A stretch of 64,000 nt of DNA from Escherichia coli (GCF_041248615.1 NZ_CP158426.1); one strand, 5' to 3'; positions 26,298-46,956 are shown, counted from the first letter of the stretch. The notes: generated from the letters alone by a model not told the origin. Numbers and translations are program-made.

Positions 26298-27033
26298 TTA
26301 TTAAGTTCAAATTCAGGGCGTGGTGCATCACCTCCTGGTATTGTTGATCAACAAATTAGAGAAAAACTTATTAAACATATGAAATATCGAAGGCTTTTAT
26401 TTTTCAAAGTTTCACGAGATGTTTGTATATGAAACTTAGTTAAATCTGTGTTTCTTCCAATTGTAGATCACAATGCCCTTTCTAAATTTTCATCGTTATA
26501 AACAAGCCATCTATCATATAAAGCAATGAATAATTTAATCGCGATTAATCATCATTAATTGTTATATTATTCACTCAATCTATTTATCAAGTGAATTTGA
26601 TAAATTCCTAATTTAAAATATCCACTATTGAGCCAGTATTTAACAACGTTAAGATGTGCAATGTGCAGATCATGTTATCAGGGTGGAGCGGTAGCATATA
26701 TTTCTTATGCAATCATTCATTTTAATAATGTTAATTGGATTATTTATTGCTGTGAATAAAAATATATTATGAATATTGGTTTAACTTTGCGTTTTTGTTA
26801 CTCGTTGTGATATGCGTACCTGTCCTGAATAACGCCAAGAAACAAGAGGTTGAGCTTGTGATTATTTTTTTGACTGAACAGACACCCGTTTCTGTAAAGT
26901 AATATTTAAACAAAATTCTCACATAACCATAGCATTTTCTGTTCCTTCCCTAATAACGTCTGAAGTCGTCCCGCTTATCACATTATCCGCAGTTGTACGG
27001 TACGGATCATTATTCATTTTACTGGAGGTTGCT
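26298..27033. promoter_or_regulatory. AT-rich, ORF-free leader (about 735 bp) upstream of vgrG; left edge of the Rhs island
   Basis: Markedly AT-rich, no ORF of 60 aa or more in any frame. Confidence 0.3.
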
Positions 27034-28935: not shown

Positions 28936-28962
28936 TTCACTCAGATTATCAGGGAGTATTTT

Positions 28963-29424
28963 ATGCAGTTCACTTTTAATGAAGGCCACATTCAACTGCC
29001 GTCTCAATGGCAGGATCAGTCAATGCAGGTCCTGGTGTCCACAGATAACAGTGGCATCAACCTGGTCATTACCCGCGAAGCCGTTCCACAGGGAACCCTG
29101 ACACCAGAGCTGTACCAGGAAACGCTGGCGCTGTACCAGGGCAAACTTGATGGGTACACCGAACATGCCTGCCGGGAAATCACTCTGGCAGAGGCCCCGG
29201 CCTGGCTGCTGGATTATTCCTGGAACGGTCCGGAAGATGAGGGGAATCAGGGGCGGATTAGCCAGATAGCCGTATTCCAGCGGCGTGGAGATACGCTGCT
29301 GACCTTCACTTTCAGCACCTCCTTATCCCTGAAGAACAGTCAAAAGACGATGCTGCTGGAGGTGATAAAGAGCTTCACCCCGTTGCCACCGGAGAATGAC
29401 ATCCAAAAGGACCAGCCGCGCTGA
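28963..29424 (+). CDS. DUF1795 (Eag-family) effector-associated chaperone
   Basis: 153 aa small protein immediately upstream of a prePAAR-Rhs effector; position and size typical of Eag chaperones. Confidence 0.7.
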   Translation: MQFTFNEGHIQLPSQWQDQSMQVLVSTDNSGINLVITREAVPQGTLTPELYQETLALYQGKLDGYTEHACREITLAEAPAWLLDYSWNGPEDEGNQGRISQIAVFQRRGDTLLTFTFSTSLSLKNSQKTMLLEVIKSFTPLPPENDIQKDQPR

Positions 29425-29443
29425 CATAAACGAGGGATAACAC

Positions 29444-32400
29444 ATGAGTGAAGGACCAGGCGGGCCACAGGGAGCGACCGCAGGCGGTACGCTGGCAATG
29501 CGAATGCTGTCACAGCAGGCGATGGTCGCCAGCCAGATGAAACGGGCAGCCAACGACAAAGCCATTGCACAGATGCTGGCATCAAAAAAGTCCGGCCCCC
29601 CCGCCGCCAGGCTGGGCGATGAAATTCAGCACAAGAGTTTTTTGGGGGCGCTGGCAGGGGCCGTGCTGGGGGCGATAGTGACCATCGCAGAAGGTTGCCT
29701 GATTATGGCCGCCTGTGCCACCGGCCCTTATGCGCTGGTTCTGGTGCCTGCGCTGATGTATGCCAGCTATAAGGCGAGTGATTATGTGGAGGAGAAACAG
29801 AACCAGCTTGAATCATGGATAAACAGCTTTTGTGACACGGACGGCGCCATCAATACCGGTTCTGAAAATGTAAACATTAACGGAAAGCCCGCTGCCAGGG
29901 CCGCCGTCACCCTTCCCCCTCCTCCCCCACCTGGAGCAATACCTGAAATCCCACAGGGGGAACCCTCATGGGGTGATATTGCCACTGACCTGCTTGAATC
30001 GGCAGCGGAAAAAGCAGTACCACTGGCGAAGGCCTGGGGGAACGCTGTTATCACCCTGACGGACAGCAATGCCGGTTTTATGGATCGCGTCAGCGCCGGC
30101 GCATCGCTTCTGTTTCCCGCCGGTCCGGTATTAATGGAGTTTGCCACCATGGTGGGCGGGCGTGGCGAAATCAAAAAAGACGTGGATTTCCCGGAAGCCG
30201 GTGAGGACACGGCGCTCTGCGACAAGGAGAACAAACCGCCGAGGATAGCCCAGGGCAGCAGCAACGTCTTTATCAACAATCAGCCTGCTGCACGCAAGGG
30301 GGACAAACTGGAGTGCAGTGCGGCAATCGTGGAAGGTTCGCCGGACGTCTTTATTGGGGGTGAGCAGGTCACCTATCTGGATATCCAGCCGGAGTTCCCG
30401 CCGTGGCAGAGAATGATCCTGGGGGGAATAACGATAGCCAGCTATCTTCTGCCGCCAGCGGGACTGCTGGGAAAACTGAAGAATCTGGCGAGACTCGGCA
30501 AACTGGGAAACCTGCTGGGGAAAAGCGGGAAGCTGCTGGGGGCAAAGCTCGGCGCGTTGCTGGGGAAAACAGGTAAGTCGTTAAAAAGTATTGCCAATAA
30601 AGTCATCAGATGGGTAACAGATCCTGTCGATCCGGTAACCGGCGCATACTGCGACGAACGTACCGACTTTACGCTGGGCCAGACACTCCCCCTCTCCTTC
30701 ACCCGTTTCCACAGTTCTGTACTGCCACTGCATGGCCTGACGGGCGTGGGCTGGAGCGACTCCTGGAGCGAATACGCCTGGGTGCGTGAACAGGGAAACC
30801 GGGTGGATATCATCAGCCAGGGAACCACGCTGAGATTTGCCTTCGACGGTGACAGTGATACGGCGGTTAACCCGTATCACGCCCAGTACATTCTGCGCCG
30901 CCGCGATGATTACCTGGAGCTGTTCGACAGGGATGCACTGAGCAGCCGCTTCTTTTATGACGCCTTTCCGGGAATGCGTCTGCGCCACCCGGTGACTGAC
31001 GATACCAGCGATGACCGTCTGGCACACAGCCCCGCAGACCGGATGTACATGCTGGGCGGGATGAGCGACACCGCCAGCAACCGCATCACGTTTGAGCGCG
31101 ACAGCCAGTACCGGATCACAGGTGTCAGTCACACTGACGGGATCCGGCTTAAACTGACGTACCACGCCAGCGGCTACCTGAAAGCCATTCACCGCACGGA
31201 TAACGGCATACAGACGCTGGCGACCTACGAACAGGATGCGCGGGGGCGGCTGACAGAAGCGGATGCGCGGCTGGACTACCACCTGTTTTATGAGTACGAC
31301 GCTGCGGACCGGATCATCCGCTGGTCCGATAACGACCAGACGTGGAGCCGTTTCACCTACGATGAACAGGGCCGGTGCGTGAATGTCACCGGGGCGGAGG
31401 GCTATTACAACGCCACGCTGGACTATGGTGACGGCTGCACCACCGTGACGGACGGCAAGGGCATTCACCGTTATTACTATGATCCTGACGGCAATATTCT
31501 GCGGGAAGCAGCGCCGGACGGCAGCACCACCATGTATGAATGGGATGAATTCCATCACCTGCTGGCCCGTCACTCCCCTGCCGGGCGGGTGGAGAAATTT
31601 GAATACAACGCCGCACACGGTCAGTTAAGCCGTTACACGGCGGCAGACGGCGCGGAGTGGCAGTACCGCTATGATGAGCGCGGCCTGCTCAGCAACATCA
31701 CCGACCCTGCCGGGCAGACGTGGACACAGCAGTGTGATGAACGCGGCCTGCCGGTAAGTCTGGTGTCGCCACAGGGCGAAGAGACCCGGCTGGCATACAC
31801 CGCTCAGGGGCTGCTGTCGGGAATATTCCGCCAGGATGAACGGCGTCTGGGCATAGAGTACGACCACCACAACCGGCCGGAAACACTCACCGACGTGATG
31901 GGCCGCGAACACCACACCGAATACAGTGGTCACGACCTGCCGGTGAAGATGCGCGGCCCCGGCGGTCAGTCAGTGCGCTTACAGTGGCAGCAGCACCATA
32001 AACTGAGTGGCCTTGAGCGCACTGGCACCGGCGCGGAAGGATTCCGCTACGACCGCCACGGCAACCTGCTGGCCTGGACGGACGGTAACGGTGTTGTCTG
32101 GACAATGGAATACGGCCCGTTTGATTTGCCGGTGGCGCGAACGGACGGTGAAGGCCACCGCTGGCAGTACCGCTACGATAAAGACACGCTGCAACTGACA
32201 GAAGTCATTAACCCGCAGGGTGAGTCATATCTTTATGTTCTGGATAACTGCGGCCGGGTGACGGAAGAGCATGACTGGGGCGGCGTGGTCTGGCGTTACC
32301 GCTATGACGCCGATGGCCTGTGTACCGCCAGGGTCAACGGCCTGGAGGAAACCATCCTCTACAGCCGGGACGCCGCAGGCCGCCTGGCAGAAGTCATCAC

Positions 32401-34303
32401 GCCGGAAGGCAAAACGCAGTATGCCTATGACAAATCCGGCAGGCTGACGGGTATCTTCAGCCCGGACGGCACATCACAGCGCACCGGCTATGACGAACGC
32501 GGGCGGGTGAATGTCACCACTCAGGGCCGACGGGCCATTGAATACCACTACCCCGACGAACACACCGTCATCCGCTGTATCCTGCCACCGGAAGATGAAC
32601 GCGACAGACACCCCGGTGAATCCCTGCTGAAAACCACGTACCGCTACAACGCCGCCGGAGAACTGACGGAGGTCATTCTGCCGGGGGATGAGACGCTGAC
32701 GTTCAGCCGTGATGAGGCAGGACGTGAAGTGCTCCGGCACAGTAACCGGGGTTTTGCCTGTGAACAGGGCTGGAATGCAGCCGGTCAGCCTGTCAGTCAG
32801 CGCGCCGGACTTTTCCCGGCAGAAGCCACATGGGGCGGGCTGCTCCCCTCACGGGTACGGGAGTACCGTTACGACAGCGCGGGTAATGTGTCAGGCGTCA
32901 CCAGCCGGGAAGATTACGGACGGGAAACACGGCGGGAATACCGGCTGGACCGGAACGGCCAGGTCACGGCGGTGACAGCCTCAGGCACCGGGCTGGGCTA
33001 TGGCGAAGGCGATGAGTCCTATGGCTATGACAGCTGCGGCTACCTGAAGGCGCAGTCTGCGGGCTGGCACCGGATAAGTGAAGAGACTGACCAGTATGCC
33101 GGAGGCCACCGGCTGAAACAGGCCGGAAACACGCAGTATGACTATGACGCCGCAGGCCGGATGGTCAGCCGCACCAGACACCGTGACGGCTATCGCCCGG
33201 AAACAGAGCGGTTCCGGTGGGACAGCCGTGACCAGCTGACCGGGTATTGCAGCGCACAGGGTGAGCAGTGGGAATACCGCCACGACGCCAGCGGCAGACG
33301 AACAGAGAAACGCTGCGACCGGAAGAAAATCCGCATCACGTACCTGTGGGACGGCGACAGTATTGCGGAAATCCGGGAATACCGCGATGATAAACTGTAC
33401 AGCGTACGGCACCTGGTGTTTAACGGCTTTGAGCTGATAAGCCAGCAGTTCAGCCGGGTACGGCAGGCGCATCCGTCGGTGGCCCCGCAGTGGGTGACAC
33501 GGACGAATCATGCGGTGAGCGACCTGACGGGCCGTCCGCTGATGCTCTTTAACAGTGAAGGTAAAACCGTCTGGCGACCGGGACAGACCAGCCTGTGGGG
33601 GCTGGCACTCAGCCTGCCCGCGGACACCGGCTACCCGGACCCGCGCGGGGAGCTGGACGCGGAAGCCGCCCCCGGCCTGCTGTATGCGGGACAGTGGCAG
33701 GATGCGGAATCGGGGCTGTGCTATAACCGGTTCCGGTACTACGAGCCGGAAACCGGGATGTACCTGGTGAGTGATCCGCTGGGGTTGCAGGGAGGGGAAC
33801 AGACTTACCGGTATGTGCCTAATCCGTGTGGGTATGTTGATCCGCTGGGGCTGGCAAAAACTTCTGTTCCCGTATCAATAGTAGAACCAAAAAAAATCAC
33901 TGGTAACTTTAAAACAATTCGAGAAAAATTAAGGCTTGCCAGGAATGGTGATGTTTCTGCACAAGCCGAAATTGCATACGCAAAATATATGCGTAGTTTG
34001 GGAAAGGATGTGCATTTCAATACACCTCCGAATCGCTCAGTATCAATGGCAGATTTTACAATTGATGGAATCCAGGTTGATACAAAATTATTGAGTGGTA
34101 TAGGCGGAAATGCTGCAAAAAATGTTAACAAGGGAGTTGGCCAGGTGGGAGATAATGGTATCGTCCTGGTAATTAGAAATTCTAATTCCAAAAATACACT
34201 TGAGGAATTTCATGAATTCTTTGGAAACTTCAAACCTAATAATTCAACAGTTCGAGTTGAAGTGATTGATCAATCCGTTTTAGAACCTTTTTGGAGATTT
34301 TAA
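29444..34303 (+). CDS. rhs: prePAAR/PAAR-Rhs polymorphic toxin (full length) with variable C-terminal toxin domain CT1
   Basis: 1619 aa; prePAAR motif AARLGDEIQH (29603-29632), two TM helices, PAAR-like region, many YD repeats, demarcation PxxxxDPxGL (PCGYVDPLGL), then AT-rich 149-aa CT. Confidence 0.95.
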   Translation: MSEGPGGPQGATAGGTLAMRMLSQQAMVASQMKRAANDKAIAQMLASKKSGPPAARLGDEIQHKSFLGALAGAVLGAIVTIAEGCLIMAACATGPYALVLVPALMYASYKASDYVEEKQNQLESWINSFCDTDGAINTGSENVNINGKPAARAAVTLPPPPPPGAIPEIPQGEPSWGDIATDLLESAAEKAVPLAKAWGNAVITLTDSNAGFMDRVSAGASLLFPAGPVLMEFATMVGGRGEIKKDVDFPEAGEDTALCDKENKPPRIAQGSSNVFINNQPAARKGDKLECSAAIVEGSPDVFIGGEQVTYLDIQPEFPPWQRMILGGITIASYLLPPAGLLGKLKNLARLGKLGNLLGKSGKLLGAKLGALLGKTGKSLKSIANKVIRWVTDPVDPVTGAYCDERTDFTLGQTLPLSFTRFHSSVLPLHGLTGVGWSDSWSEYAWVREQGNRVDIISQGTTLRFAFDGDSDTAVNPYHAQYILRRRDDYLELFDRDALSSRFFYDAFPGMRLRHPVTDDTSDDRLAHSPADRMYMLGGMSDTASNRITFERDSQYRITGVSHTDGIRLKLTYHASGYLKAIHRTDNGIQTLATYEQDARGRLTEADARLDYHLFYEYDAADRIIRWSDNDQTWSRFTYDEQGRCVNVTGAEGYYNATLDYGDGCTTVTDGKGIHRYYYDPDGNILREAAPDGSTTMYEWDEFHHLLARHSPAGRVEKFEYNAAHGQLSRYTAADGAEWQYRYDERGLLSNITDPAGQTWTQQCDERGLPVSLVSPQGEETRLAYTAQGLLSGIFRQDERRLGIEYDHHNRPETLTDVMGREHHTEYSGHDLPVKMRGPGGQSVRLQWQQHHKLSGLERTGTGAEGFRYDRHGNLLAWTDGNGVVWTMEYGPFDLPVARTDGEGHRWQYRYDKDTLQLTEVINPQGESYLYVLDNCGRVTEEHDWGGVVWRYRYDADGLCTARVNGLEETILYSRDAAGRLAEVITPEGKTQYAYDKSGRLTGIFSPDGTSQRTGYDERGRVNVTTQGRRAIEYHYPDEHTVIRCILPPEDERDRHPGESLLKTTYRYNAAGELTEVILPGDETLTFSRDEAGREVLRHSNRGFACEQGWNAAGQPVSQRAGLFPAEATWGGLLPSRVREYRYDSAGNVSGVTSREDYGRETRREYRLDRNGQVTAVTASGTGLGYGEGDESYGYDSCGYLKAQSAGWHRISEETDQYAGGHRLKQAGNTQYDYDAAGRMVSRTRHRDGYRPETERFRWDSRDQLTGYCSAQGEQWEYRHDASGRRTEKRCDRKKIRITYLWDGDSIAEIREYRDDKLYSVRHLVFNGFELISQQFSRVRQAHPSVAPQWVTRTNHAVSDLTGRPLMLFNSEGKTVWRPGQTSLWGLALSLPADTGYPDPRGELDAEAAPGLLYAGQWQDAESGLCYNRFRYYEPETGMYLVSDPLGLQGGEQTYRYVPNPCGYVDPLGLAKTSVPVSIVEPKKITGNFKTIREKLRLARNGDVSAQAEIAYAKYMRSLGKDVHFNTPPNRSVSMADFTIDGIQVDTKLLSGIGGNAAKNVNKGVGQVGDNGIVLVIRNSNSKNTLEEFHEFFGNFKPNNSTVRVEVIDQSVLEPFWRF

Positions 34304-34307
34304 AAAT

Positions 34308-34784
34308 ATGATCACCAAATCAAGTATACTCATAGAGTATAAAGATAAAAGTAAACTAACCGAAAGTATTTATAAGTTTGTAAATGCTCTAGATATTGAC
34401 TTTTCGATATTAAAATATGACTACTTTGATGTAAATGAGTATAAAAAAAATATTACTTATGACACATCTTTTATTGACAAAGATGCAGAATATATTGAAT
34501 TATTAGCGAAGATTGATTTTTCTTATGAAGTTGATTTCGGCACATCAACAACATCGATTGAAAGCAAGTATCTTCCATCTCTAACTGATTTCATCGCTCA
34601 ATCACTATCACAACAATTAAATTGTAACATAATAACCAGCTTTAAACCATTAAGTGGAGATGAGTTTTGCCCAATAACATATTTTTCAAAAGGTAAAGAA
34701 GTTATCAATTTTACGACATTTAATTCAAATTGTTGGGATGGGGTATACTGGGTAAAAAAAAGGAGGCAAACAAATATCCGCTAA
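34308..34784 (+). CDS. Putative cognate immunity protein for Rhs CT1
   Basis: 158 aa, AT-rich ORF 5 nt after the rhs stop, in the usual immunity position. Confidence 0.6.
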   Translation: MITKSSILIEYKDKSKLTESIYKFVNALDIDFSILKYDYFDVNEYKKNITYDTSFIDKDAEYIELLAKIDFSYEVDFGTSTTSIESKYLPSLTDFIAQSLSQQLNCNIITSFKPLSGDEFCPITYFSKGKEVINFTTFNSNCWDGVYWVKKRRQTNIR

Positions 34785-34902
34785 CGTAGTTTTTCAATAG
34801 CTACACCATGTCACGTAACATGATGCCTGGATATTAACAGAAAGACAGAAGTGGACTCAGCGGTGAGATGAACGCAGCCTGAGTCTGAAGTACGACCTGC
34901 CG

Positions 34903-37233
34903 GTGAAGATGCGCGGCCCCGGCGGTCAGTCAGTGCGGTTGCAGTGGCAGCAGCACCATAAACTGAGTGGCCTTGAGCGCACTGGCACCGGCGCGGAAGG
35001 GTTCAGCTATGACCGCCACGGCAACCTGCTGGCCTGGACGGACGGCAATGGTGTTGTCTGGACAATGGAGTACGGCCCGTTCGATTTGCCGGTGGCGCGA
35101 ACGGACGGTGAAGGCCACCGCTGGCAGTACCGCTATGATAAAGACACGCTGCAACTGACAGAAGTCATTAACCCGCAGGGTGAGTCATATCTTTATGTTC
35201 TGGATAACTGCGGCCGGGTGACGGAAGAGCATGACTGGGGCGGCGTGGTCTGGCGTTACCGCTATGACGCCGATGGCCTGTGTACCGCCAGGGTCAACGG
35301 CCTGGAGGAAACCATCCTCTACAGCCGGGACGACGCAGGCCGCCTGGCAGAAGTCATCACGCCGGAAGGCAAAACGCAGTATGCGTATGACAAATCCGGC
35401 AGGCTGACGGGTATCTTCAGCCCGGACGGCACATCACAGCGCACCGGCTATGACGAACGCGGGCGGGTGAATGTCACCACTCAGGGCCGACGGGCCATTG
35501 AATACCACTACCCCGATGAACACACCGTCATCCGCTGTATCCTGCCACCGGAAGATGAACGCGACAGACACCCCGGTGAATCCCTGCTGAAAACCACGTA
35601 CCGCTACAACGCAGCCGGAGAACTGGCAGAGGTCATCCTGCCGGAGGATGAGACGCTGACGTTCAGCCGTGATGAGGCAGGACGTGAAGTGCTCCGGCAC
35701 AGTAACCGGGGTTTTGCCTGTGAGCAGGGCTGGAATGCAGCCGGTCAGCTTACCAGCCAGCGCGCCGGACTTTTCCCGGCAGAAGCCACATGGGGCGGGC
35801 TGCTCCCCTCACGGGTACGGGAGTACCGTTACGACAGCGCGGGTAATGTGTCAGGCGTCACCAGCCGGGAAGATTACGGACGGGAAACACGGCGGGAATA
35901 CCGGCTGGACCGGAACGGCCAGGTCACGGCGGTGACAGCCTCAGGCACCGGGCTGGGCTATGGCGAAGGCGATGAGTCCTATGGCTATGACAGCTGCGGC
36001 TACCTGAAGGCGCAGTCTGCGGGCTGGCACCGGATAAGTGAAGAGACTGACCAGTATGCCGGAGGCCACCGGCTGAAACAGGCCGGAAACACGCAGTATG
36101 ACTATGACGCCGCAGGCCGGATGGTCAGCCGCACCAGACACCGTGACGGCTATCGCCCGGAAACAGAGCGGTTCCGGTGGGACAGCCGTGACCAGCTGAC
36201 CGGGTATTGCAGCGCACAGGGTGAGCAGTGGGAATACCGCCACGACGCCAGCGGCAGACGAACAGAGAAACGCTGCGACCGGAAGAAAATCCGCATCACG
36301 TACCTGTGGGACGGCGACAGTATTGCGGAAATCCGGGAATACCGCGATGATAAACTGTACAGCGTACGGCACCTGGTGTTTAACGGCTTTGAGCTGATAA
36401 GCCAGCAGTTCAGCCGGGTACGGCAGGCGCATCCGTCGGTGGCCCCGCAGTGGGTGACACGGACGAATCATGCGGTGAGCGACCTGACGGGCCGTCCGCT
36501 GATGCTCTTTAACAGTGAAGGTAAAACCGTCTGGCGACCGGGACAGACCAGCCTGTGGGGGCTGGCACTCAGCCTGCCCGCGGACACCGGCTACCCGGAC
36601 CCGCGCGGGGAACTGGACGCGGAAGCCGACCCCGGCCTGCTGTATGCAGGACAGTGGCAGGATGCGGAATCCGGGCTGTGCTATAACCGGTTCCGGTATT
36701 ACGAGCCGGAAACAGGGATGTACCTGGTGAGTGATCCGCTGGGGTTGCTGGGGGGTGAGCAGACTTACCGGTATGTGCCGAATCCGTGTGGGTATGTTGA
36801 TCCTTTGGGATTAGCAACATGTCCCATAATCAGACAACGGGTGCTGGCTAACCTTGAAGCCAGTCGGGCAGCAAGGGCTGCATCTAATTTTGGTAAGAAA
36901 AATATCTATGATTTTATCAAGGCAACTCAATCTGCTATCCCTGGCACCTCTATCCCAAAATCTTTTGAGATTATAACTGCTAATGGTACTTTCTGGGTAC
37001 ACCCAAATGCTACAAAACATATGGCTGAATATTTGACTCGGAACGGTCTCTCACATTCAACTTCTGTAGAGAGCCAAATAATGTTAACAAGTTTTCACGA
37101 AGCTGTAAGTTTGGCTAGTGCTCAAGGTATAAAGTATGAAGAAATGATGAATGTTGGCGGCTGGGAACTAGTATTTAGTCAAGCTAAATCTGACTCGGCT
37201 TTATCAGTTATTAAACATGCTCTTTATAAATGA
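34903..37233 (+). CDS. rhs: Orphan 5'-truncated rhs fragment (core repeat plus distinct C-terminal toxin CT2)
   Basis: 776-aa ORF with GTG start; 34892-36813 nearly identical to main rhs 31932-33853; PxxxxDPxGL followed by unrelated 139-aa CT. Confidence 0.85.
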   Translation: MKMRGPGGQSVRLQWQQHHKLSGLERTGTGAEGFSYDRHGNLLAWTDGNGVVWTMEYGPFDLPVARTDGEGHRWQYRYDKDTLQLTEVINPQGESYLYVLDNCGRVTEEHDWGGVVWRYRYDADGLCTARVNGLEETILYSRDDAGRLAEVITPEGKTQYAYDKSGRLTGIFSPDGTSQRTGYDERGRVNVTTQGRRAIEYHYPDEHTVIRCILPPEDERDRHPGESLLKTTYRYNAAGELAEVILPEDETLTFSRDEAGREVLRHSNRGFACEQGWNAAGQLTSQRAGLFPAEATWGGLLPSRVREYRYDSAGNVSGVTSREDYGRETRREYRLDRNGQVTAVTASGTGLGYGEGDESYGYDSCGYLKAQSAGWHRISEETDQYAGGHRLKQAGNTQYDYDAAGRMVSRTRHRDGYRPETERFRWDSRDQLTGYCSAQGEQWEYRHDASGRRTEKRCDRKKIRITYLWDGDSIAEIREYRDDKLYSVRHLVFNGFELISQQFSRVRQAHPSVAPQWVTRTNHAVSDLTGRPLMLFNSEGKTVWRPGQTSLWGLALSLPADTGYPDPRGELDAEADPGLLYAGQWQDAESGLCYNRFRYYEPETGMYLVSDPLGLLGGEQTYRYVPNPCGYVDPLGLATCPIIRQRVLANLEASRAARAASNFGKKNIYDFIKATQSAIPGTSIPKSFEIITANGTFWVHPNATKHMAEYLTRNGLSHSTSVESQIMLTSFHEAVSLASAQGIKYEEMMNVGGWELVFSQAKSDSALSVIKHALYK

Positions 37234-37763
37234 CGATTATGCTTACATTAGAAAATGAAACAAACTACAAAGATGTTGTTGTTAATATAGATGAATTTGT
37301 ACCTTTTGATATAACTTTTGGAAAGGGGAGCGAACAGTGTTTGTACTGGAGAGGCGGCAATGGTAAAAGTTCTTTGGTTGAAGTTGGGTTAAATATGTAC
37401 AGCGGAGAAGTAAGTAACATCACACTAGCAAATATCGATTCAGGTGAAATTAACATTACAGATGAGATGTTAGCCAACAACCTTCCTGAAATACAAGGGT
37501 CTGTTATATTTCAGACAAGCGAGTGGCTTAATAAAGACATTTCCGAATACTCAAACAGATTTATTGATGATTTTGATTGCAATATCAAGTTAATAATTGG
37601 TAGTAATTACATTAAATTATTATTTAAAAAAGCAACAAATCCCATTTGTTATATCATTAATAGGAATATAAGATTTGGTTTTTCTTTGAGTAGGGAACTT
37701 TCGACATTGGAAATATTAGACCTCAATCAAGAAAAATTAGATATTCTAAAGTTATTTAAATAG
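37230..37763 (+). CDS. Putative cognate immunity protein for orphan CT2
   Basis: 177 aa AT-rich ORF whose ATG overlaps the rhs-CT2 stop (ATGA). Confidence 0.6.
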   Translation: MTIMLTLENETNYKDVVVNIDEFVPFDITFGKGSEQCLYWRGGNGKSSLVEVGLNMYSGEVSNITLANIDSGEINITDEMLANNLPEIQGSVIFQTSEWLNKDISEYSNRFIDDFDCNIKLIIGSNYIKLLFKKATNPICYIINRNIRFGFSLSRELSTLEILDLNQEKLDILKLFK

Positions 37764-38242
37764 TTTTAGTGTTTGAAACTTACCGAGAGATGATAGCTAT
37801 GAATGAATACAAAAACATCCATCTTGGAGGAAACAATGGAATGTTAATCCATTAAAAAACATACTTCAATATCTTTAGTGAAGAAAGAGTTGTATGAAAG
37901 AAATATATCTTATGTGAGCGACATGATGCATGCTAATTATATTATTGGCCGGAAATTTTATGATGATAGCAAAAAGGAGGGGTTATTTCTGTAAGAATGG
38001 ATATACCCGCAGGGTTTGAACCAGACATTTATTTGTTGAAGTCTAAGATCCAAATGGAAGCATTTATATCCCTCAGATATTATGCGTTGACGGGTTGATA
38101 AAGATACTTTTAGAGGGTTAATAAATGGAGAACGTATAATAAATCTCTTAAACAAACTATAACCTGTACTAATGAAAAAAATGGGAATAGATAAGTTAAT
38201 AGCCTATTCTAAAAATGGTAAAGTGGTTTTACTTCCAAAATA

Positions 38243-38686
38243 ATGGAGTTTAGTATGAAAATCGAAGCTAATTCCCTTACTCATCCCTATGACTACAACG
38301 CCTCACTGAACAATTATTTACATTATTTTGAGAATTTCTCTCGTAATGACTGGAATAAAGATTCATGTGGAGGATATTTTACTTTTAGAGATGATGACAG
38401 AGAGTGTGTTTTGTTTTTTGTGAATTATGGTGATAATTTTTCATTGCGCTATGATTGTACACAAAGTTCTGATGGAATAGTGTCATGCTGGTATAGTAAC
38501 CATGAAGATGATAAAATGAATATCATCGTCGATGCTGATACAGAACAATTTATCCCTTTAGGTTCTTGCTTACCTCCTGATATTACTTTATCAGTAATAA
38601 AAGATTTTTTCAAAAATCCTTTAGAGAAATCAAAAAAAGTAAAATGGATGAATGCAGATGACATTGACTGGTCATCTGTGTATTAA
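38243..38686 (+). CDS. Hypothetical protein, possible orphan immunity protein
   Basis: 147 aa AT-rich ORF inside the Rhs island with no adjacent toxin; no recognised motif. Confidence 0.4.
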   Translation: MEFSMKIEANSLTHPYDYNASLNNYLHYFENFSRNDWNKDSCGGYFTFRDDDRECVLFFVNYGDNFSLRYDCTQSSDGIVSCWYSNHEDDKMNIIVDADTEQFIPLGSCLPPDITLSVIKDFFKNPLEKSKKVKWMNADDIDWSSVY

Positions 38687-38911
38687 AGTTGGATTGGATA
38701 ATTATCTGTTTCAAAAATCATTAAATTTAGAACCTATCTGTTCAACAGAGCTGCCTTGAACAGCAGGTTCTTTTATGATGTCCAGGAGCGAATATGCCTG
38801 TGATGTCTGGCACTCAGCATCTGACTGACCTGGACTACTGATCCTACTCACACAGGGAGCTAGACCTGGAAGCAACCTACTGTAAGCAGTGCAGTAGCAG
38901 CCCACCTCACA

Positions 38912-38950
38912 TCAGTCCTTGCAAGGTGTGGGCCTTTGTGATCTTGCTCT
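38912..38950. mobile_element. Degenerate remnant resembling the right terminus of an H-repeat/ISAs1-family element
   Basis: About 31 of 40 nt identical to the right end of the complete H-repeat copy at 44492-44531. Confidence 0.3.
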
Positions 38951-39297
38951 GTATTGCTGAGATCCTCAGGAAGGACTCGAAATTTAATCAGGAAGGCCGT
39001 TGCTAAAAATCAAAAAATAAATTCAAGAGCAATTTCTAAAACTTTTGAATCTACTGTATCGGATGAGGTTTTCACTCCTTTCCAAAAGGTGAGTTTTCAA
39101 GCATTCAAGTTTCTGTTATGACCAAAACTTCACCATTTAACACTAATCCGAGTATTATGTTACCATGAAGAAAAAAGATATTAGATTTGCAATATCCATT
39201 AACTCCAACTCAAGTAAGATAGAATTAATGGAAAAATTAAAAACATAATCCCAGGGCTTATTGAAATAACTCCCAGTGCATTAAGAGAAGAAAAAAC

Positions 39298-39513
39298 ATG
39301 GTAGTTATTGAAGATAATGATCTTTATGACCCTATAAAAGCAGAGGGAGTTGATGGATGGATGTATTATAAATTCATATTATCCATATTCCCATTAAAGG
39401 GAGTAGACACAACATTAGAATATCAACGGGAATTATCTTTTCTTTTCTTAAAGAAATTAAAAGATGCGGGTCTGTTAGGTGAACTTATATGCGAGGATGA
39501 TTTTCATGACTGA
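39298..39513 (+). CDS. Hypothetical small protein (71 aa), possible immunity-gene remnant
   Basis: ORF only; AT-rich; within Rhs island. Confidence 0.25.
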   Translation: MVVIEDNDLYDPIKAEGVDGWMYYKFILSIFPLKGVDTTLEYQRELSFLFLKKLKDAGLLGELICEDDFHD

Positions 39514-39577
39514 TGACCTCTACATATATCCTCAGTTCGTGGCTGGTATTACATGATCTGACAGGGAAAGATCGTAG

Positions 39578-39873
39578 CGAAATCAAAAAAGACGTGGATT
39601 TCCCGGAAGCCGGTGAAGACACAGCGCTCTGCGACAAGGAGACTAAACCGCCGAGGATAACCCAGGGCAGCAGCAACGTTTTTATCAACAATCAGCCCGC
39701 CGCGCGCAAGGGGGACAAACTGGAGTGCAGTGCGGCGATCGTGGGAGGTTCGCCGGACGTCTTTATTGGGGGTGAGCAGGTCACCTATCTGGATATCCAG
39801 CCGGAGTTCCCGCCGTGGCAGAGAATGATCCTGGGGGGAATAACGATAGCCAGCTATCTTCTGCCGCCAGCGC
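39578..39873 (+). pseudogene. Fragment of a PAAR-Rhs N-terminal (PAAR) region
   Basis: About 296 bp nearly identical to main rhs 30166-30461; lies in track ORF 39513-39890; abutted on the right by H-repeat end sequence. Confidence 0.75.
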
Positions 39874-39960
39874 AGGGAAAGATCACGTAACGCTGCTTTT
39901 TTGTACTAAATAATTCGCACTAAATGTTCAATAATTGAGATATTCCTTATTACCTAAATA
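39874..39960. mobile_element. Left-terminus remnant (about 85 bp) of an H-repeat/ISAs1-family element
   Basis: Matches the first ~90 bp of the complete H-repeat at 43242-43335 (cagggaaagatca...ttgtactaaataattcgca...ttgagatattcct). Confidence 0.55.
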
Positions 39961-40003
39961 CAGTTCCACCAAGATTACCTAAACCCAAATGAGGTAAAAG
40001 ATA

Positions 40004-40372
40004 GTGGGTATGAATAAAAATGAAATCCATTTCCCTATAGGATATGGTTGGTTGAATGAAAAAAAAATTATTGGCACCAGTGAATTTAGCCAATTAGAAC
40101 CATGGTTTTATCTAGATGAGAACAGGTGTTTTTTTGCGAATAAAAAATGGCCAAATGTCATAGGTGAACAATTATTCGCTTTTGCTAAACGTCAAGATAA
40201 TGATGAATTGGCTTGTTTCAAAATTAATGAATCTGGAGTCTGTGAGGGTGTTTATTTAATTAATGGGTGGACTCCTAACGGGTTTGATATTATACAATTT
40301 TACCCTGATTTTTGGGAATGGGTACATTTGGTTATACAAGATGTCTCGGAGTGGATTGATAATAAAGGATAA
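40004..40372 (+). CDS. Hypothetical protein, possible orphan immunity protein
   Basis: 122 aa AT-rich ORF upstream of orphan rhs-CT3; no recognised motif. Confidence 0.4.
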   Translation: MGMNKNEIHFPIGYGWLNEKKIIGTSEFSQLEPWFYLDENRCFFANKKWPNVIGEQLFAFAKRQDNDELACFKINESGVCEGVYLINGWTPNGFDIIQFYPDFWEWVHLVIQDVSEWIDNKG

Positions 40373-40401
40373 TTTGAAACAAAAGTAAAAAACCGCCTTC
40401 A

Positions 40402-41100
40402 TTGAAGGTAACGTGGAGTGGTGGGCGGAGCAGCCTGCCCGCAGACACAGACTACCCGGACCCGCGCGGGGAGCGGGACGCGGAAGCCGACCCCGGCCTG
40501 CTGTATGCAGGACAGTGGCAGGATGCGGAATCCGGACTGTGCTATAACCGGTTCCGGTATTACGAGCCGGAAACCGGGATGTACCTGGTGAGTGATCCCC
40601 TGGGGTTGCTGGGGGGTGAGCAGACTTACCGGTATGTGCCTAATCCTAGTGGGTATGTTGATCCTCTGGGATTAGCAACGTGTCCTATACTCAGACAGTG
40701 GGCGCTGACTAACCTTGAAGCCAGTCGGGCAGCAAGGGCTGCATCTAATTTTGGTAAGCCTCTGGTCCAGCGAAATAAAACGATTGGCGATAAAGTAAGG
40801 GATATGATTGCCAAAGAGAGGGGAACCACTCTAATTGAACAAAATTATAGAGTGACAGGAGGATTAAAGCGTATTGACGTTGTTGATGGAGTAACGGGTA
40901 TAGAATCTAAAGTCGGTCGAACAGGGTTAACAACCCGAGTACGGCAAGAGGTAGCGCGGGATATTAAGATTTTGAGAAGTGAGCAACTTGATCAAATTGA
41001 ATGGGTGTTTACAAGAAGTTCAACTACAGGGAAGATTGGGCCAACTAAACCACTTGAAGATCTTTTAAATAAACATGGTATACCGATTATTTATCGATAA
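40402..41100 (+). CDS. rhs: Orphan rhs C-terminal fragment (short core remnant plus toxin CT3 with possible PD-(D/E)xK-like motif)
   Basis: 232-aa ORF with TTG start; 40432-40674 homologous to the end of the main rhs core; PxxxxDPxGL then 141-aa CT containing RIDVVDGVTGIESK. Confidence 0.8.
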   Translation: MKVTWSGGRSSLPADTDYPDPRGERDAEADPGLLYAGQWQDAESGLCYNRFRYYEPETGMYLVSDPLGLLGGEQTYRYVPNPSGYVDPLGLATCPILRQWALTNLEASRAARAASNFGKPLVQRNKTIGDKVRDMIAKERGTTLIEQNYRVTGGLKRIDVVDGVTGIESKVGRTGLTTRVRQEVARDIKILRSEQLDQIEWVFTRSSTTGKIGPTKPLEDLLNKHGIPIIYR

Positions 41101-41111
41101 GGAGTGATAGT

Positions 41112-41681
41112 GTGAAACTCAAACCGATTGGTGACTTTTTAAACAAAAATGGGTTTATAAAAAATGGTAACAATGATTTTTATAAAGTTCATGATAAGTT
41201 TGTAAATTGTATAAATTTTCAAAAAAAGAGTACAGGTGATATTTTTTTTATAAACACAGGTGTTCATCCTGTGTTCGAAAATTTTTGCAATGAACCACCG
41301 AAAAAAGAAATAGATTGTTACATCCGTAACCGTGTGTGTGATGGACTAAGTATATCTTTGCTGCATTCTTTTGAAGGTAGTGAGTTTGTTATCAGTGAGA
41401 TAAAAAACAAAGCGTTTTGTTTTTTTGAATACTTTGATTCATTGAATAAAATATTCGATGCTATTCGTGTTGTAGATATTGAAGAGAGAAATATTTGCGA
41501 TGAGCTAAGTGGTGTAAGCAGCGTAAGATTAGCTTTGATGTGTATGAACTACCAGTATGAGAAAAAAAAATTTAGCCTTGTTTCTGATTTTGCGAACTAT
41601 GGTCTTGCTATATCTAGAGGCCCGGTACCGAAAAAAGCATTGGATTTGCCCCTATATTTCCAGACACCTGTTATCACTTAA
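41112..41681 (+). CDS. Putative immunity protein for CT3, 3' end disrupted by IS2
   Basis: 189-aa ORF; last 13 codons lie inside IS2; the original frame resumes after the IS2 target duplication. Confidence 0.55.
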
Positions 41682-42557
41682 CCCATTACTGGCCTGCTGC
41701 CGCAGATATTCCCGTGGCGAGCGATAACCCAGTGCACTATGCGGATGCCATTCGTTATAATGCTCGAACGCCTCTGCAAGGTTCTTTGCTGCCGTTAACC
41801 CGTCTGGTTTAGGCATGATACTGATGTAGTCACGCTTTATCGTTTTCACGAAGCTCTCTGCTATGCCGTTACTCTCCGGACTCCGCACCGCCGTGTTCTT
41901 CGGTTCAAGCCCCAATATCCGGGCAAACTGCCGTGTTTCATTAGCCCGGTAGCATGAACCATTATCCGTCAGCCACTCTACTGGAGACGCCGGAAGCTCG
42001 TTGCCGAAGCGGCGTTCCACCGCTCCCAGCATGACGTCCTGTACTGTTTCACTGTCGAAGCCGCCCGTAGTGACTGCCCAGTGCAGTGCCTCACGGTCAC
42101 AGCAGTCCAGCGCGAACGTGACTCGCAGTTTTTCTCCGTTATCACAGCGGAACTCGAACCCGTCAGAGCACCATCGTTGATTGCTTTCTTTCACGGCCAC
42201 TTTGCCAGTATGTGCCCGTTTCGATGGCGGTACAGCGGTTTTTCGCTCAAGCAACAGCGCATTCTGGCGCATGATCCGGTAAACACGTTTGGCATTGATC
42301 GCAGGCGTACCATCAAGTTCGGCCTGTCTGCGAAGCAGCGCCCATACCCGACGATAACCATACGTGGGCAGCTCTCCGATAACATGGTGTATACGGAGAA
42401 GCACATCCGTATCATCTGAGTGACGGCTGCGGCGACCATCTTTCCAGTCATCGGTTCGTCTGAGAATTACGTGCAACTGCGCACGCGACACCCGGAGACA
42501 ACGGCTGACTAAGCTTACTCCCCATCCCCGGGCAATAAGGGCGCGTGCGCTATCCAC
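41652..42557 (-). CDS. insD: IS2 transposase OrfB
   Basis: 301 aa integrase-core protein recognised as IS2 InsD. Confidence 0.95.
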
Positions 42558-42880
42558 TTTTTTGCACGCCCGTATTCAACGGCTTCTTTAAGGAGTTCAT
42601 TTTCCATCGTTTTTTTGCCGAGCAGGCGCTGGAGTTCTTTAATCTGCTTCATGGCAGCAGCAAGTTCAGAGGCAGGAACGACCTGCTCTCCTGCGGCCAC
42701 AGCAGTAAGACTTCCCTCCTGGTATTGCTTGCGCCAGAGAAATAACTGGCTGGCTGCCACACCGTGTTGCCGGGCAACAAGGGAGACCTTCATTCCCGGT
42801 TCAAAACTCTGCTGAACAATAGCGATCTTTTCCTGTGTAGTACGCCGTCTGCGTTTCTCCGGTCCTAAGACATCAATCAT
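42515..42880 (-). CDS. insC: IS2 transposase OrfA (HTH)
   Basis: 121 aa from [14 protein letters not shown]; overlaps insD by 43 nt, consistent with the IS3-family frameshift window. Confidence 0.9.
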
Positions 42881-43023
42881 CTGCTCTCCAATGACTAGTC
42901 TAAAAACTAGTATTAAGACTATCACTTATTTAAGTGATATTGGTTGTCTGGAGATTCATGGGGCCAGTCTAAGCATTTAAGGATATGATAAAAATAACAG
43001 AGTGATACCTAATCCGGTGTAAT

Positions 43024-43242
43024 ACTTGCTGCCTGTGTACCGCGAAGATTAACGGCCGGGAGGAAACTATTCTCTACAACCGGGACGCCACAGGCCGCCT
43101 GGCAGAAGTCATCACGCCGGAAGGCAAAACGCAGTATGCGTATGACAAATCCGGCAGGCTGACGGGTATCTTCAGCCCGGACGACACATCACAGCGCACC
43201 GGCTATGAAGAACGCGGGCGGGTGAATGTCACCACTCAGGGC
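43024..43242 (+). pseudogene. Internal rhs core fragment (about 215 bp)
   Basis: Homologous to main rhs about 32322-32535; bounded by the IS2 flank on the left and the H-repeat terminus on the right. Confidence 0.7.
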
Positions 43243-44531
43243 AGGGAAAGATCATCCAAAGTACACTTTTTGTACTAAATAATTCGCATTTTATGTTTAA
43301 AAATTGAGATATTCCTCATTACCTAAAGCTGTTTTTATTGCTTATACATGATCAAATACTCCTTACATAATTAAGGAGAACAAAATGGAACTTAAAAAAT
43401 TGATGGAGCATATTTCTATTATCCCCGATTACAGACAAGCCTGGAAAGTGGAACATAAATTATCGGATATTCTACTGTTGACTATTTGTGCCGTTATTTC
43501 TGGTGCAGAAGGTTGGGAAGATATAGAGGATTTTGGGGAAACACATCTCGATTTTTTAAAACAATATGGTGATTTTGAAAATGGTATTCCTGTTCACGAT
43601 ACCATCGCCAGAGTTGTATCCTGTATCAGTCCTTCAAAATTTCACGAGTGCTTTATTAACTGGATGCGAGATTGCCATACTTCAGATGATAAAGACGTTA
43701 TTGCAATCGATGGAAAAACACTCCGGCATTCTTATGACAAGAGTCGCCGCAGGGGAGCGATTCATGTCATTAGTGCGTTCTCAACAATGCACAGTCTGGT
43801 CATCGGACAGATCAGAACGGATGAGAAATCTAATGAGATTACAGCTATCCCAGAACTTCTTAACATGCTGTATATTAAAGGAAAAATCATCACAACTGAT
43901 GCGATGGGTTGCCAGAAAGATATTGCAGAGAAGATACAAAAACAGGGCGGTGATTATTTATTCGCTGTAAAAGGAAACCAGGGGCGGCTTAATAAAGCCT
44001 TTGAGGAAAAATTTCCACTGAAAGAATTAAATAATCCAGAGCATGACAGTTACGCCATTAGTGAAAAGAGTCACGGCAGAGAAGAAATCCGTCTTCATAT
44101 TGTTTGCGATGTCCCTGATGAACTTATTGATTTCACGTTTGAATGGAAAGGACTGAAGAAATTATGTGTGGCAGTCTCCTTTCGGTCAATAATAGCAGAA
44201 CAAAAGAAAGAGCCAGAAATGACGGTCAGATATTATATCAGTTCTGCTGATTTAACCGCAGAGAAGTTCGCCACAGCAATCCGAAACCACTGGCACGTGG
44301 AGAATAAGCTGCACTGGCGTCTGGACGTGGTAATGAATGAAGACGACTGCAAAATAAGAAGAGGAAACGCCGCAGAATTATATTCAGGGATACGGCACAT
44401 CGCTATTAATATTTTAACGAATGATAAGATATTCAAGGCAGGGTTAAGACGTAAGATGCGAAAAGCAGCCATGGGCAGAAACTATCTCGCGTCAGTCCTT
44501 GCGGGGAGCGGGCTTTCGTAATCTTGCCCTG
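43242..44531 (+). mobile_element. H-repeat (ISAs1-family) insertion element, complete copy of about 1.29 kb
   Basis: Imperfect terminal inverted repeats cagggaaagatca / (reverse complement) cagggcaagatta; encodes a 378-aa transposase. Confidence 0.8.
43385..44521 (+). CDS. H-repeat-associated (ISAs1-family DDE) transposase
   Basis: 378 aa, recognised as the H-repeat protein family found next to Rhs elements. Confidence 0.9.
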
Positions 44532-44718
44532 CGTTAACCTCCCCTCCTTGACACCACGCTTTTGTCTACATTCTACGCAAACGGCAACTTTTATAACCAG
44601 TGTAAAAATAACGTGCCGCAATAGTCATACCTATTAATGGTAAAAAGCTGTCACAATTCATAAAAAACCTTAATATACGCCACCCTAAACATAACCAGCG
44701 TTAATGTAAGGTTTTTGT

Positions 44719-46956
44719 GTGGACTGGCTTCTTGATGTTTTTGCTACCTGGCTCTACGGCTTAAAAGTAATCGCGATAACGTTAGCGGTCATCATGTTCA
44801 TCAGCGGGCTGGACGATTTTTTTATTGATGTCGTCTACTGGGTACGCCGCATTAAACGCAAGTTGAGTGTTTATCGCCGCTACCCGCGAATGAGTTACCG
44901 CGAACTGTATAAACCAGATGAAAAACCGTTAGCGATTATGGTTCCGGCGTGGAATGAAACGGGCGTCATCGGCAATATGGCCGAGCTGGCGGCGACCACG
45001 CTCGACTATGAAAACTATCATATCTTTGTTGGCACCTACCCCAACGACCCCGATACTCAGCGTGATGTTGACGAAGTGTGCGCTCGCTTCCCGAATGTGC
45101 ATAAGGTAGTCTGCGCGCGTCCTGGCCCCACCAGCAAAGCCGACTGCCTGAACAACGTGCTGGACGCCATCACCCAGTTTGAGCGTAGCGCCAATTTCGC
45201 TTTTGCTGGTTTTATTCTGCATGACGCCGAAGACGTAATTTCACCGATGGAATTGCGTCTGTTCAACTATCTGGTCGAGCGTAAAGATCTGATTCAGATC
45301 CCGGTGTATCCGTTCGAACGCGAATGGACGCACTTCACCAGCATGACTTACATTGATGAGTTTTCAGAACTGCATGGCAAAGATGTTCCGGTGCGTGAAG
45401 CCCTCGCCGGACAAGTGCCCAGCGCAGGCGTCGGCACCTGTTTCAGCCGCCGCGCCGTGACCGCACTGTTAGCTGACGGTGACGGTATTGCTTTCGACGT
45501 GCAGAGTCTTACTGAAGATTACGACATTGGTTTCCGCCTGAAAGAAAAAGGTATGACGGAAATTTTTGTCCGTTTTCCGGTGGTGGACGAAGTCAAAGAA
45601 CGCGAGCAGCGTAAATTTTTACAGCACGCGCGGACGTCAAACATGATCTGCGTGCGCGAATATTTCCCCGATACCTTTTCGACTGCGGTTCGACAAAAAT
45701 CTCGCTGGATCATCGGCATTGTTTTCCAGGGCTTTAAAACCCACAAATGGACCTCCAGCCTGACGCTGAACTACTTTCTCTGGCGCGACCGCAAAGGGGC
45801 AATCAGTAACTTTGTCAGCTTCCTCGCGATGCTGGTGATGATCCAGCTTTTGCTGTTGCTGGCGTATGAAAGTTTGTGGCCCGATGCCTGGCATTTCCTT
45901 TCTATTTTCAGCGGCAGCGCATGGTTAATGACTCTGCTGTGGCTAAACTTTGGCTTGATGATTAACCGCATCGTGCAGCGGGTGATTTTCGTTACTGGCT
46001 ACTACGGCCTGACGCAGGGGCTGCTATCTGTCCTGCGTCTTTTCTGGGGCAACCTGATTAACTTCATGGCCAACTGGCGCGCGTTAAAACAGGTACTTCA
46101 ACACGGCGATCCACGTCGTGTCGCGTGGGATAAAACAACGCATGACTTCCCCAGCGTGACTGGCGATACCCGCTCGTTGCGTCCGTTAGGTCAAATCCTG
46201 CTGGAAAATCAGGTCATCACTGAAGAACAACTCGATACAGCACTGCGTAATCGCGTCGAAGGTCTACGCCTGGGCGGTTCAATGCTGATGCAGGGGCTGA
46301 TTAGCGCCGAACAGCTGGCACAGGCGCTGGCAGAGCAAAACGGCGTGGCGTGGGAGTCGATCGACGCCTGGCAGATCCCTTCATCACTGATTGCCGAAAT
46401 GCCGGCCTCCGTGGCGCTGCATTATGCAGTACTGCCGCTGCGTCTGGAAAATGATGAGTTAATTGTCGGCAGTGAAGATGGTATTGACCCGGTTTCGCTG
46501 GCGGCCCTGACGCGTAAAGTCGGACGCAAAGTGCGTTACGTCATTGTTCTGCGGGGACAAATTGTCACGGGGTTACGCCACTGGTATGCGCGCCGACGCG
46601 GTCACGATCCGCGGGCAATGTTGTACAATGCGGTTCAGCATCAGTGGCTCACGGAACAGCAGGCCGGTGAAATCTGGCGGCAATATGTGCCGCATCAGTT
46701 CCTGTTCGCCGAAATACTGACCACACTCGGTCATATTAATCGTTCAGCAATTAACGTGTTGTTATTGCGCCATGAACGTAGTTCTCTGCCGCTCGGCAAG
46801 TTTTTGGTCACCGAAGGCGTTATCAGCCAGGAAACGTTGGATCGCGTCCTGACAATTCAACGCGAATTACAAGTTTCGATGCAATCACTATTACTCAAAG
46901 CAGGTTTAAACACAGAACAGGTTGCGCAACTGGAGTCCGAAAATGAAGGAGAATAA
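44719..46956 (+). CDS. nfrB: Bacteriophage N4 adsorption protein B (inner membrane family-2 glycosyltransferase with C-terminal regulatory domain)
   Basis: 745 aa, GTG start, N-terminal TM plus GT2 domain. Confidence 0.95.
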   Translation: MDWLLDVFATWLYGLKVIAITLAVIMFISGLDDFFIDVVYWVRRIKRKLSVYRRYPRMSYRELYKPDEKPLAIMVPAWNETGVIGNMAELAATTLDYENYHIFVGTYPNDPDTQRDVDEVCARFPNVHKVVCARPGPTSKADCLNNVLDAITQFERSANFAFAGFILHDAEDVISPMELRLFNYLVERKDLIQIPVYPFEREWTHFTSMTYIDEFSELHGKDVPVREALAGQVPSAGVGTCFSRRAVTALLADGDGIAFDVQSLTEDYDIGFRLKEKGMTEIFVRFPVVDEVKEREQRKFLQHARTSNMICVREYFPDTFSTAVRQKSRWIIGIVFQGFKTHKWTSSLTLNYFLWRDRKGAISNFVSFLAMLVMIQLLLLLAYESLWPDAWHFLSIFSGSAWLMTLLWLNFGLMINRIVQRVIFVTGYYGLTQGLLSVLRLFWGNLINFMANWRALKQVLQHGDPRRVAWDKTTHDFPSVTGDTRSLRPLGQILLENQVITEEQLDTALRNRVEGLRLGGSMLMQGLISAEQLAQALAEQNGVAWESIDAWQIPSSLIAEMPASVALHYAVLPLRLENDELIVGSEDGIDPVSLAALTRKVGRKVRYVIVLRGQIVTGLRHWYARRRGHDPRAMLYNAVQHQWLTEQQAGEIWRQYVPHQFLFAEILTTLGHINRSAINVLLLRHERSSLPLGKFLVTEGVISQETLDRVLTIQRELQVSMQSLLLKAGLNTEQVAQLESENEGE

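Follow-up and report, generated by a model that had tools for sequence, protein, structure and literature searches.

What is encoded by a displaced rhs fragment whose downstream partner gene runs into an insertion sequence (IS), and what is left of its function? This question is raised by positions 40402-41681 of a 64,000-nucleotide stretch of Escherichia coli DNA (GCF_041248615.1, NZ_CP158426.1; hereafter, the window), where a short remnant of an rhs core carries a 141-residue C-terminal tip, here named CT3, and is followed by a small open reading frame (ORF) that is interrupted by IS2. Here we report a computational analysis of this locus. The best overall explanation, which we consider likely, is a silent, displaced toxin/immunity cassette, in which CT3 is a predicted nuclease toxin of the PD-(D/E)xK type and the downstream gene, encoding a DUF4304 protein, is its immunity gene clipped by IS2.

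The ORF at 40402-41100 joins the 3' end of an rhs core, terminated by the translated motif YVDPLGL at 40654-40674, the place of the PxxxxDPxGL motif that closes Rhs-associated cores, to CT3, which comprises exactly 141 codons (40675-41097) and a stop codon at 41098-41100. The core remnant is matched by the TIGR03696 model Rhs_assc_core (1.2e-18, 67.4 bits versus a cut-off of 32.5) and has an identity of 92% with 33610-33853 and of 94% with 36570-36813; it constitutes a tract of homology through which recombination with rhs genes further upstream could take place. Homology to rhs begins at 40431, with in-frame stop codons upstream, and both the N-terminal delivery region and the YD-repeat shell are missing; the PGAP annotation of the fragment is a pseudogene 'missing N-terminus'. 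Beyond DPLGL, DNA homology with the CT2-bearing rhs copy runs for another 84 nt, to 40758. The tips CT2 (36814-36897) and CT3 (40675-40758) share their first ~28 residues after DPLGL, following the pattern ATCPI[IL]RQ..L.NLEASRAARAASNFGK. This common linker extends the recombination tract beyond the rhs core, and distant homologues of CT3 align from residue 30 onwards only.

The same tip is found in a complete form elsewhere. At this chromosomal locus, E. coli A15 (NZ_CP028759.1) encodes an intact 1611-aa Rhs protein tipped with CT3. Its toxin domain, of 112 residues, differs at two of them, and the gene directly downstream encodes a DUF4304 protein of 185 aa. Since the same pair stands on an intact Rhs protein, CT3 and DUF4304 constitute a genuine toxin/immunity module. 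The pair is present in single copy on the chromosome of 114 out of 5426 complete E. coli genomes (~2%), and CT3 is conserved at 99% identity or above in 110 of them. Strain WL297 retains no more than a remnant of the locus. The original prediction, made from the sequence of the window, had described CT3 as an orphan toxin; this holds, given the 244 nt of rhs core, the missing N-terminal part and the intact counterpart in A15.

An exhaustive profile search identified the CT3 domain in 953 representative clusters, 326 of them at E <= 1e-10. Among the 137 listed proteins that contain the whole domain, which range from 110 to 3630 aa, it lies at the very C-terminal end in 136. The carriers are RHS/YD-shell proteins, HINT-domain proteins and filamentous haemagglutinins, and the hosts extend from Enterobacterales to Actinobacteria, Firmicutes, Bacteroidetes and Planctomycetes, with Proteobacteria included. 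A tblastn search for annotated relatives on plasmids returned four weak matches, either named 'hemagglutinin repeat-containing protein' or 'hypothetical protein' or unannotated. Aligning 78 members of the family, with identities down to 32%, shows no variation at G9, D39, E48, K50, G52, F83, G93 and P94 (domain numbering), and at least 90% of the sequences retain E26. In CT3 numbering, the acidic/basic set among these residues is E55, D68, E77 and K79, the last three of which fall within the segment RIDVVDGVTGIESK (residues 66-79). The invariance of D, E and K across the 78 sequences argues that the D...ExK motif is not a chance occurrence.

The structure of the CT3 domain was predicted using AlphaFold. 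A first run of AlphaFold2 with a shallow alignment of 10 sequences was unreliable, with one model at a predicted local distance difference test (pLDDT) score of 83 and four near 50, and the prediction was repeated with the 78 diverse sequences. As a result, the pLDDT reached 96.7 and the predicted template modelling (TM) score 0.88, with all five models above 94. The predicted elements follow the order helix, three strands, helix, strand, that is, the alpha-beta-beta-beta-alpha-beta core of the canonical PD-(D/E)xK layout, in which D68 is located on the second strand, E77-x-K79 on the third, and the upstream acidic residue E55 also in a predicted strand. The strongest structural neighbours include AF1548, NucS/EndoMS, SfsA, many type II restriction enzymes, the CdiA-CT DNase of EC869 and the Tox-REase-5 effector TseT. 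Foldseek matches in the PDB were the weaker ones, with BamHI, AF1548 and EndoMS at the top, and in the AlphaFold database (AFDB) the matches were polymorphic-toxin tips at TM scores of 0.8-0.96, including four named 'Tox-REase-7 domain-containing protein'. The predicted fold and the conserved residues support the assignment of CT3 residues 30-141 as a small PD-(D/E)xK nuclease. The nuclease type guessed in the original prediction is thereby supported at the level of predicted fold and conserved residues.

The same prediction had extended the nuclease guess to CT1, the tip of the main Rhs protein (33854-34303), which contains DFTIDGIQVDTK, and proposed a distant relationship between CT1 and CT3. 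Of the five claims made, this was the only one to find no support. A profile-profile comparison of CT1 with the CT3 family (hhalign) gave a probability of 0.2%, a search for sequence relatives of CT1 in the PDB found none, and its only Pfam match, to CdiA_C (PF18451) over residues 66-140, is non-significant (E = 0.14). CT1 may be a different nuclease-type tip, and it is possible that it has a PD-(D/E)xK fold and shares the superfamily with CT3.

The partner ORF at 41112-41681 encodes 189 aa from a GTG start codon and has a ribosome-binding site, AAGGAG, 7 nt upstream. The native 185-aa form of this protein matches Pfam DUF4304 (PF14137) with E = 6.7e-10, over residues 7-75 and model positions 2-75 of 115, and PF14137 is also recorded, as a precomputed assignment, on its homologues. 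A DUF4304 gene directly follows a CT3-type domain not only in A15 but also in two distant metagenomic Rhs proteins (P0027 and P0018), whose toxin domains are ~55-60% identical to CT3. Both the DUF4304 match and this repeated adjacency support the earlier proposal that the downstream ORF is the immunity gene. The idea that every member of the toxin family is partnered by DUF4304 was considered and rejected: three more distant members precede unrelated small ORFs, which indicates that the toxin family uses several immunity families. Pairing with several immunity families is usual for polymorphic toxins. In the alignment of DUF4304 (41112-41640 in the window; L005 6820-7431; L007 13893-14504), the elements GF...Q are invariant. 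The Imm54 family has the signature 'GF, Q' and is paired with Tox-REase-4, -7, -9 and -10 (Zhang et al. 2012, PMC3482391); on the basis of this match DUF4304 may be the same family as Imm54, which we regard as a lead. Literature searches found nothing on DUF4304 or PF14137, and no experimental study of the CT3 tip with a DUF4304 partner.

The immunity gene is interrupted close to its 3' end. As had been read from the sequence, IS2 has replaced its last nine codons with 13 of its own, and the native 3' end lies just beyond the right flank; translation confirms this exactly. Removal of the IS together with one copy of the target repeat restores the 185-aa ORF. The two alleles have a common prefix of 176 aa, after which the native tail FKDMIKITE gives way to the IS2-derived residues, three of which are prolines. 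The displaced end at 42977-43005 reads TT AAG GAT ATG ATA AAA ATA ACA GAG TGA and is contiguous with the immunity gene in genomes without the IS. The empty site is well represented: in dozens of complete E. coli genomes, the two flanks align as a single match of 1665 bp with no interruption. IS2 occupies the site in only one of the 5426 complete genomes, NZ_LT599825.1 (E. coli NRZ14408), with a 100% match to the window. The fused 189-aa protein (WP_192459761.1) occurs on 11 contigs from several accessions and the native protein on 902, and the recurrence of the fused form argues that the insertion is real and inherited within a small clone, and is no assembly artefact. The two overlapping ORFs of the element score above the curated NCBIfam cut-offs for IS2 (TnpB, 700.8 bits versus 597; TnpA, 272.9 versus 229), and PGAP annotates it as an IS3 family transposase with a programmed frameshift. 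The copy at 41641-42971 is ~95% identical to copies annotated as canonical IS2 and is found in 13 places in its own genome, which indicates a variant that is or was active in the source strain.

The clipped segment is a conserved one. Where E. coli has PKKAFKDMIK, a homologue with an overall identity of 23% has PKKAFKDILK, and related FK..[IL]K strings occupy this place in the other DUF4304 homologues. Given the loss of the conserved AFKDxxK motif and the three prolines in the replacement, loss or weakening of immunity is plausible. Judging from these sequence features, the IS2 fusion probably weakens or abolishes the immunity function.

Several points weigh against the proposed reading, and we consider them together with the alternatives that they favour. 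The first concerns the enzyme itself. CT3 had no significant match in Pfam, NCBIfam or the PDB sequences, whether searched by itself or through profiles of its family, for which reason the fold is deduced from the predicted structure; the nuclease assignment draws on that structure and on the motif. Moreover, PD-(D/E)xK toxins can be RNases instead of DNases, and some toxins of contact-dependent inhibition (CDI) systems with this fold are known RNases. That CT3 has the fold and acts as an RNase, for example on tRNA, nevertheless seems quite unlikely: its strongest structural neighbours act on DNA, the full E-D-ExK metal-binding set is conserved, and relatives labelled Tox-REase-7, including CdiA2 of A. 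baumannii (10.64898/2026.03.25.714310; see also 10.1101/2025.05.08.652813), are reported or predicted to be DNases. By analogy with these neighbours and labelled toxins, the substrate of CT3 would most likely be DNA.

The second point concerns the immunity protein. The fused allele persists on its 11 contigs, which suggests that it is not strongly deleterious and might still work. The last nine residues could be dispensable and the insertion neutral, in line with the 176 of 185 residues that remain intact, including all of the region matched by Pfam DUF4304, and with the inheritance of the fused allele across several accessions. We regard such a working fusion as doubtful, because no other part of the C-terminal half is as well conserved as the replaced segment (AFKDxxK) in homologues of 21-23% identity, and because three prolines enter in its place. 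Persistence of the allele would be equally expected if the gene is not needed as long as CT3 is silent.

The remaining points concern selection on the cassette as a whole. On 63 contigs, the immunity gene has lost one A from its run of nine A residues (41562-41570 in the window), which shifts the frame after YEKK and leaves a protein of 179 aa (P0260). This second disruptive allele, found in other E. coli, is independent of IS2, and its spread suggests that selection on the orphan immunity gene may be weak. In addition, a promoter and terminator scan yielded candidate sites that are not enriched over shuffled sequence. These observations are also expected if the entire cassette is a decaying relic, unexpressed and unselected, with no present or future role, in which IS2 is one of several neutral lesions. 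The absence of an N-terminal part and of an own start in CT3, its pseudogene call by PGAP, the circulation of two disruptive immunity alleles and the reduction of the locus in WL297 all point in the same direction. Such a relic would not, however, be expected to retain an intact CT3 ORF with all of its catalytic candidates at 99% conservation in 110 of 114 genomes, and the native immunity allele, with its 902 contigs, is by far the commonest. Furthermore, it has been shown experimentally in Salmonella that orphan immunity genes protect against neighbours and that orphan toxins can be reactivated (PMC3967940, PMC7043789). We therefore consider complete decay somewhat unlikely.

These data allowed us to propose a likely history of the cassette. 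CT3 and its DUF4304 gene would once have formed the tip of the main rhs gene, as they still do in A15, and newer tips, CT2 and then CT1, would have pushed them downstream, leaving 244 nt of rhs core ahead of them. The arrangement fits the C-terminal displacement established for rhs loci, a process that moves older tips downstream as newer ones arrive. CT3 in the window would thus be stored and not deployed, given that a delivery part is missing and that no separate start is evident for it. Recombination of the core remnant with an rhs core upstream of it could re-arm CT3, a route that we propose by analogy with the orphan rhs of Salmonella, for which it was demonstrated experimentally (PMC3967940). 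Once delivered, CT3 would bind a metal ion through E55, D68 and E77-x-K79, located on strands beta1 to beta3, and cleave phosphodiester bonds in the nucleic acid of the target cell, and the DUF4304 protein would act as the cognate immunity protein, probably blocking CT3 by binding to it. In the sublineage of the source strain, IS2 entered the immunity gene 28 nt ahead of its stop codon and exchanged the conserved C-terminal motif for unrelated, proline-containing residues. The cell would tolerate this clipped immunity protein because its own CT3, lacking the delivery part and a start, is silent. Two costs are predicted. The clipped strain would probably be sensitive to CT3-armed E. coli such as A15, and it would risk self-damage if CT3 were re-armed by recombination with the upstream core.

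The cassette belongs to a type VI secretion Rhs element that is located between cusRS (on the cusS side) and nfrBA (on the nfrB side), and the coordinates of its features are collected in the table below.

Table. Features of the Rhs element and of the CT3 cassette in the window
Feature	Position	Strand	Remarks
vgrG	27034-28935		first gene of the Rhs element
DcrB-related, Eag-type chaperone gene	28963-29424		after vgrG
PAAR-Rhs gene, tip CT1	29444-34303		1619 aa; followed by a 158-aa ORF
rhs core remnant, tip CT2	34903-37233		776 aa; followed by a 177-aa ORF
rhs core 3' remnant	40431-40674	+	244 nt; ends in the YVDPLGL demarcation motif
CT3 linker	40675-40761	+	first 29 residues, ATCPILRQWALTNLEASRAARAASNFGKP; common to CT2; outside the toxin fold
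Predicted PD-(D/E)xK nuclease toxin domain	40762-41100	+	CT3 residues 30-141 and stop
Catalytic candidate E55	40837-40839		
Catalytic candidate D68	40876-40878		
Catalytic candidate E77	40903-40905		
Catalytic candidate K79	40909-40911		
DUF4304 immunity gene, native part	41112-41640	+	codons 1-176 and first base of codon 177
Target-site duplication, left copy	41636-41640		AGCAT, 5-bp direct repeat
IS2 (IS3 family)	41641-42971	-	1331 bp; orfA 42515-42925, orfB 41652-42557
IS2-encoded extension of the immunity ORF	41641-41681	+	with base 41640 encodes 13 codons and stop
Target-site duplication, right copy	42972-42976		AGCAT, 5-bp direct repeat
Displaced native 3' end of the immunity gene	42977-43005	+	last two bases of codon 177, KDMIKITE and stop

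The CT1-tipped main rhs gene stands ahead of the 776-aa core remnant that is tipped with CT2. About 2 kb of rhs core is duplicated in tandem here (31932-33909 and 34892-36869), with a spacing of 2960 bp. At the corresponding place, strain ST2747 has only one rhs gene, tipped with CT2, so that CT1 and its 158-aa ORF look like the latest arrival. Between the 177-aa ORF behind CT2 and the CT3 orphan lie several small ORFs that are rich in AT and a piece of the PAAR region. The orphan is followed in its 3' direction by IS2, an rhs core fragment, an ISAs1 (H-repeat) element and nfrB. The rhs cores have a GC content of ~60-65%, against 28-47% for the tips and the small ORFs, which is the usual composition of Rhs elements.

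The surroundings of the orphan hold further fragments. A 300-nt piece of the PAAR-proximal part of rhs at 39573-39872 is 96% identical to 30161-30460, and it is followed by a 91-nt copy (39868-39958, 82% identity) of the sequence at 43237-43327 that precedes the ISAs1 element; together, this arrangement looks like the scar of an earlier rearrangement. The internal rhs core fragment at 43031-43242 is 94% identical to 32316-32527 and is cut off beside the ISAs1-family (H-repeat) transposase gene (43385-44521). Directly upstream of the CT3 orphan lies a 122-aa ORF (40004-40372), which had no match in an NCBIfam search. It was also compared with the SUKH-3 gene of A15 as a possible relative, and no similarity was found; possibly, it is an immunity gene left stranded by the loss of its toxin. 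A scan of positions 26000-45000 with Rfam gave no match.

The analysis provides a testable function for an Rhs tip that is otherwise 'hypothetical' and is carried by ~2% of complete E. coli genomes, and it gives DUF4304, a domain of unknown function, a likely role in immunity. The native, IS2-clipped and frameshifted alleles can serve as natural variants in studies of whether selection maintains orphan immunity genes or whether such genes drift to decay. The general understanding of Rhs systems is unchanged, as the architecture, the fold class and IS-mediated damage to such loci were known before. Taken as a whole, the locus is an ordinary example of an orphan Rhs module of toxin and immunity gene, and its toxin family is large yet unmodelled in Pfam.

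Ten families of Tox-REase toxins were described by Zhang et al. 2012 (PMC3482391), and among them Tox-REase-7 fits CT3 best. The published family is characterized by the motifs GxxxE, IxD, ExK and Q, occurs on RHS, HINT, FilH and tail-fibre carriers, and has Imm54 among its partners (PMC3482391). Similarly to Tox-REase-7 (PF15649), the CT3 family represents a restriction-endonuclease-fold tip on RHS, HINT and filamentous-haemagglutinin carriers, with the conserved D, ExK and Q and, in many members, GxxxE; the four structural neighbours from the AFDB that bear the name Tox-REase-7 are 26-43% identical. The two differ in that CT3 has GTTLIE in place of GxxxE and RxD in place of IxD, with an arginine two positions before the catalytic aspartate. 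The Pfam model of Tox-REase-7 did not match CT3 at E <= 10, and at E <= 0.1 it matched none of the 78 members of the family. Membership of CT3 in the Pfam family was rejected as a candidate assignment; a Microbacterium relative (P0193) that is named Tox-REase-7 in UniProt is likewise unmatched by the model. The Pfam models of Tox-REase-2, -3, -5 and -9 and of DpnII-MboI gave sub-threshold matches only among the 78 members, namely three for DpnII-MboI (the best at 2.5e-3) and one for Tox-REase-3 (2.8e-2). We regard CT3 as a branch of restriction-endonuclease-fold toxins that lies outside Pfam coverage, probably close to Tox-REase-7. Alternatively, its domain would define a large family that current domain libraries do not model and that is distinct from all ten Tox-REase families, with DUF4304 as one dedicated immunity family. 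We consider this unlikely; if true, it would give DUF4304 its first functional assignment.

Nucleases of the fold predicted for CT3 differ from it in several respects. The DNase CdiA-CT(o11) of EC869 and the Tox-REase-5 effectors TseT and PA3907 (PDB 4g6u, 7dym, 9oz0) have no detectable sequence similarity to CT3, are paired with other immunity protein families, and are delivered by CDI or as cargo effectors of the type VI secretion system, whereas CT3 is an Rhs tip. AF1548 and NucS/EndoMS (PDB 1y88, 2vld, 5gke) are archaeal or bacterial housekeeping or repair nucleases with additional DNA-binding domains; unlike CT3, they are not toxins and have no immunity partner. The closest parallel to the cassette as a whole is provided by the orphan rhs-CT/rhsI modules of Enterobacteriaceae, namely of E. 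coli, Dickeya and Salmonella (Poole et al. 2011, PMC3150448; Koskiniemi et al. 2014, PMC3967940). In these modules, too, a short core remnant closes with DPxGL and is joined to a variable toxin tip, accompanied by a small immunity gene. The CT3 cassette resembles them further in its position downstream of a full-length, vgrG-linked rhs gene, in its AT-rich tips behind a GC-rich core, and in the IS and H-repeat elements nearby. There is no essential difference between the two, and at the CT3 locus the immunity gene is truncated by IS2.
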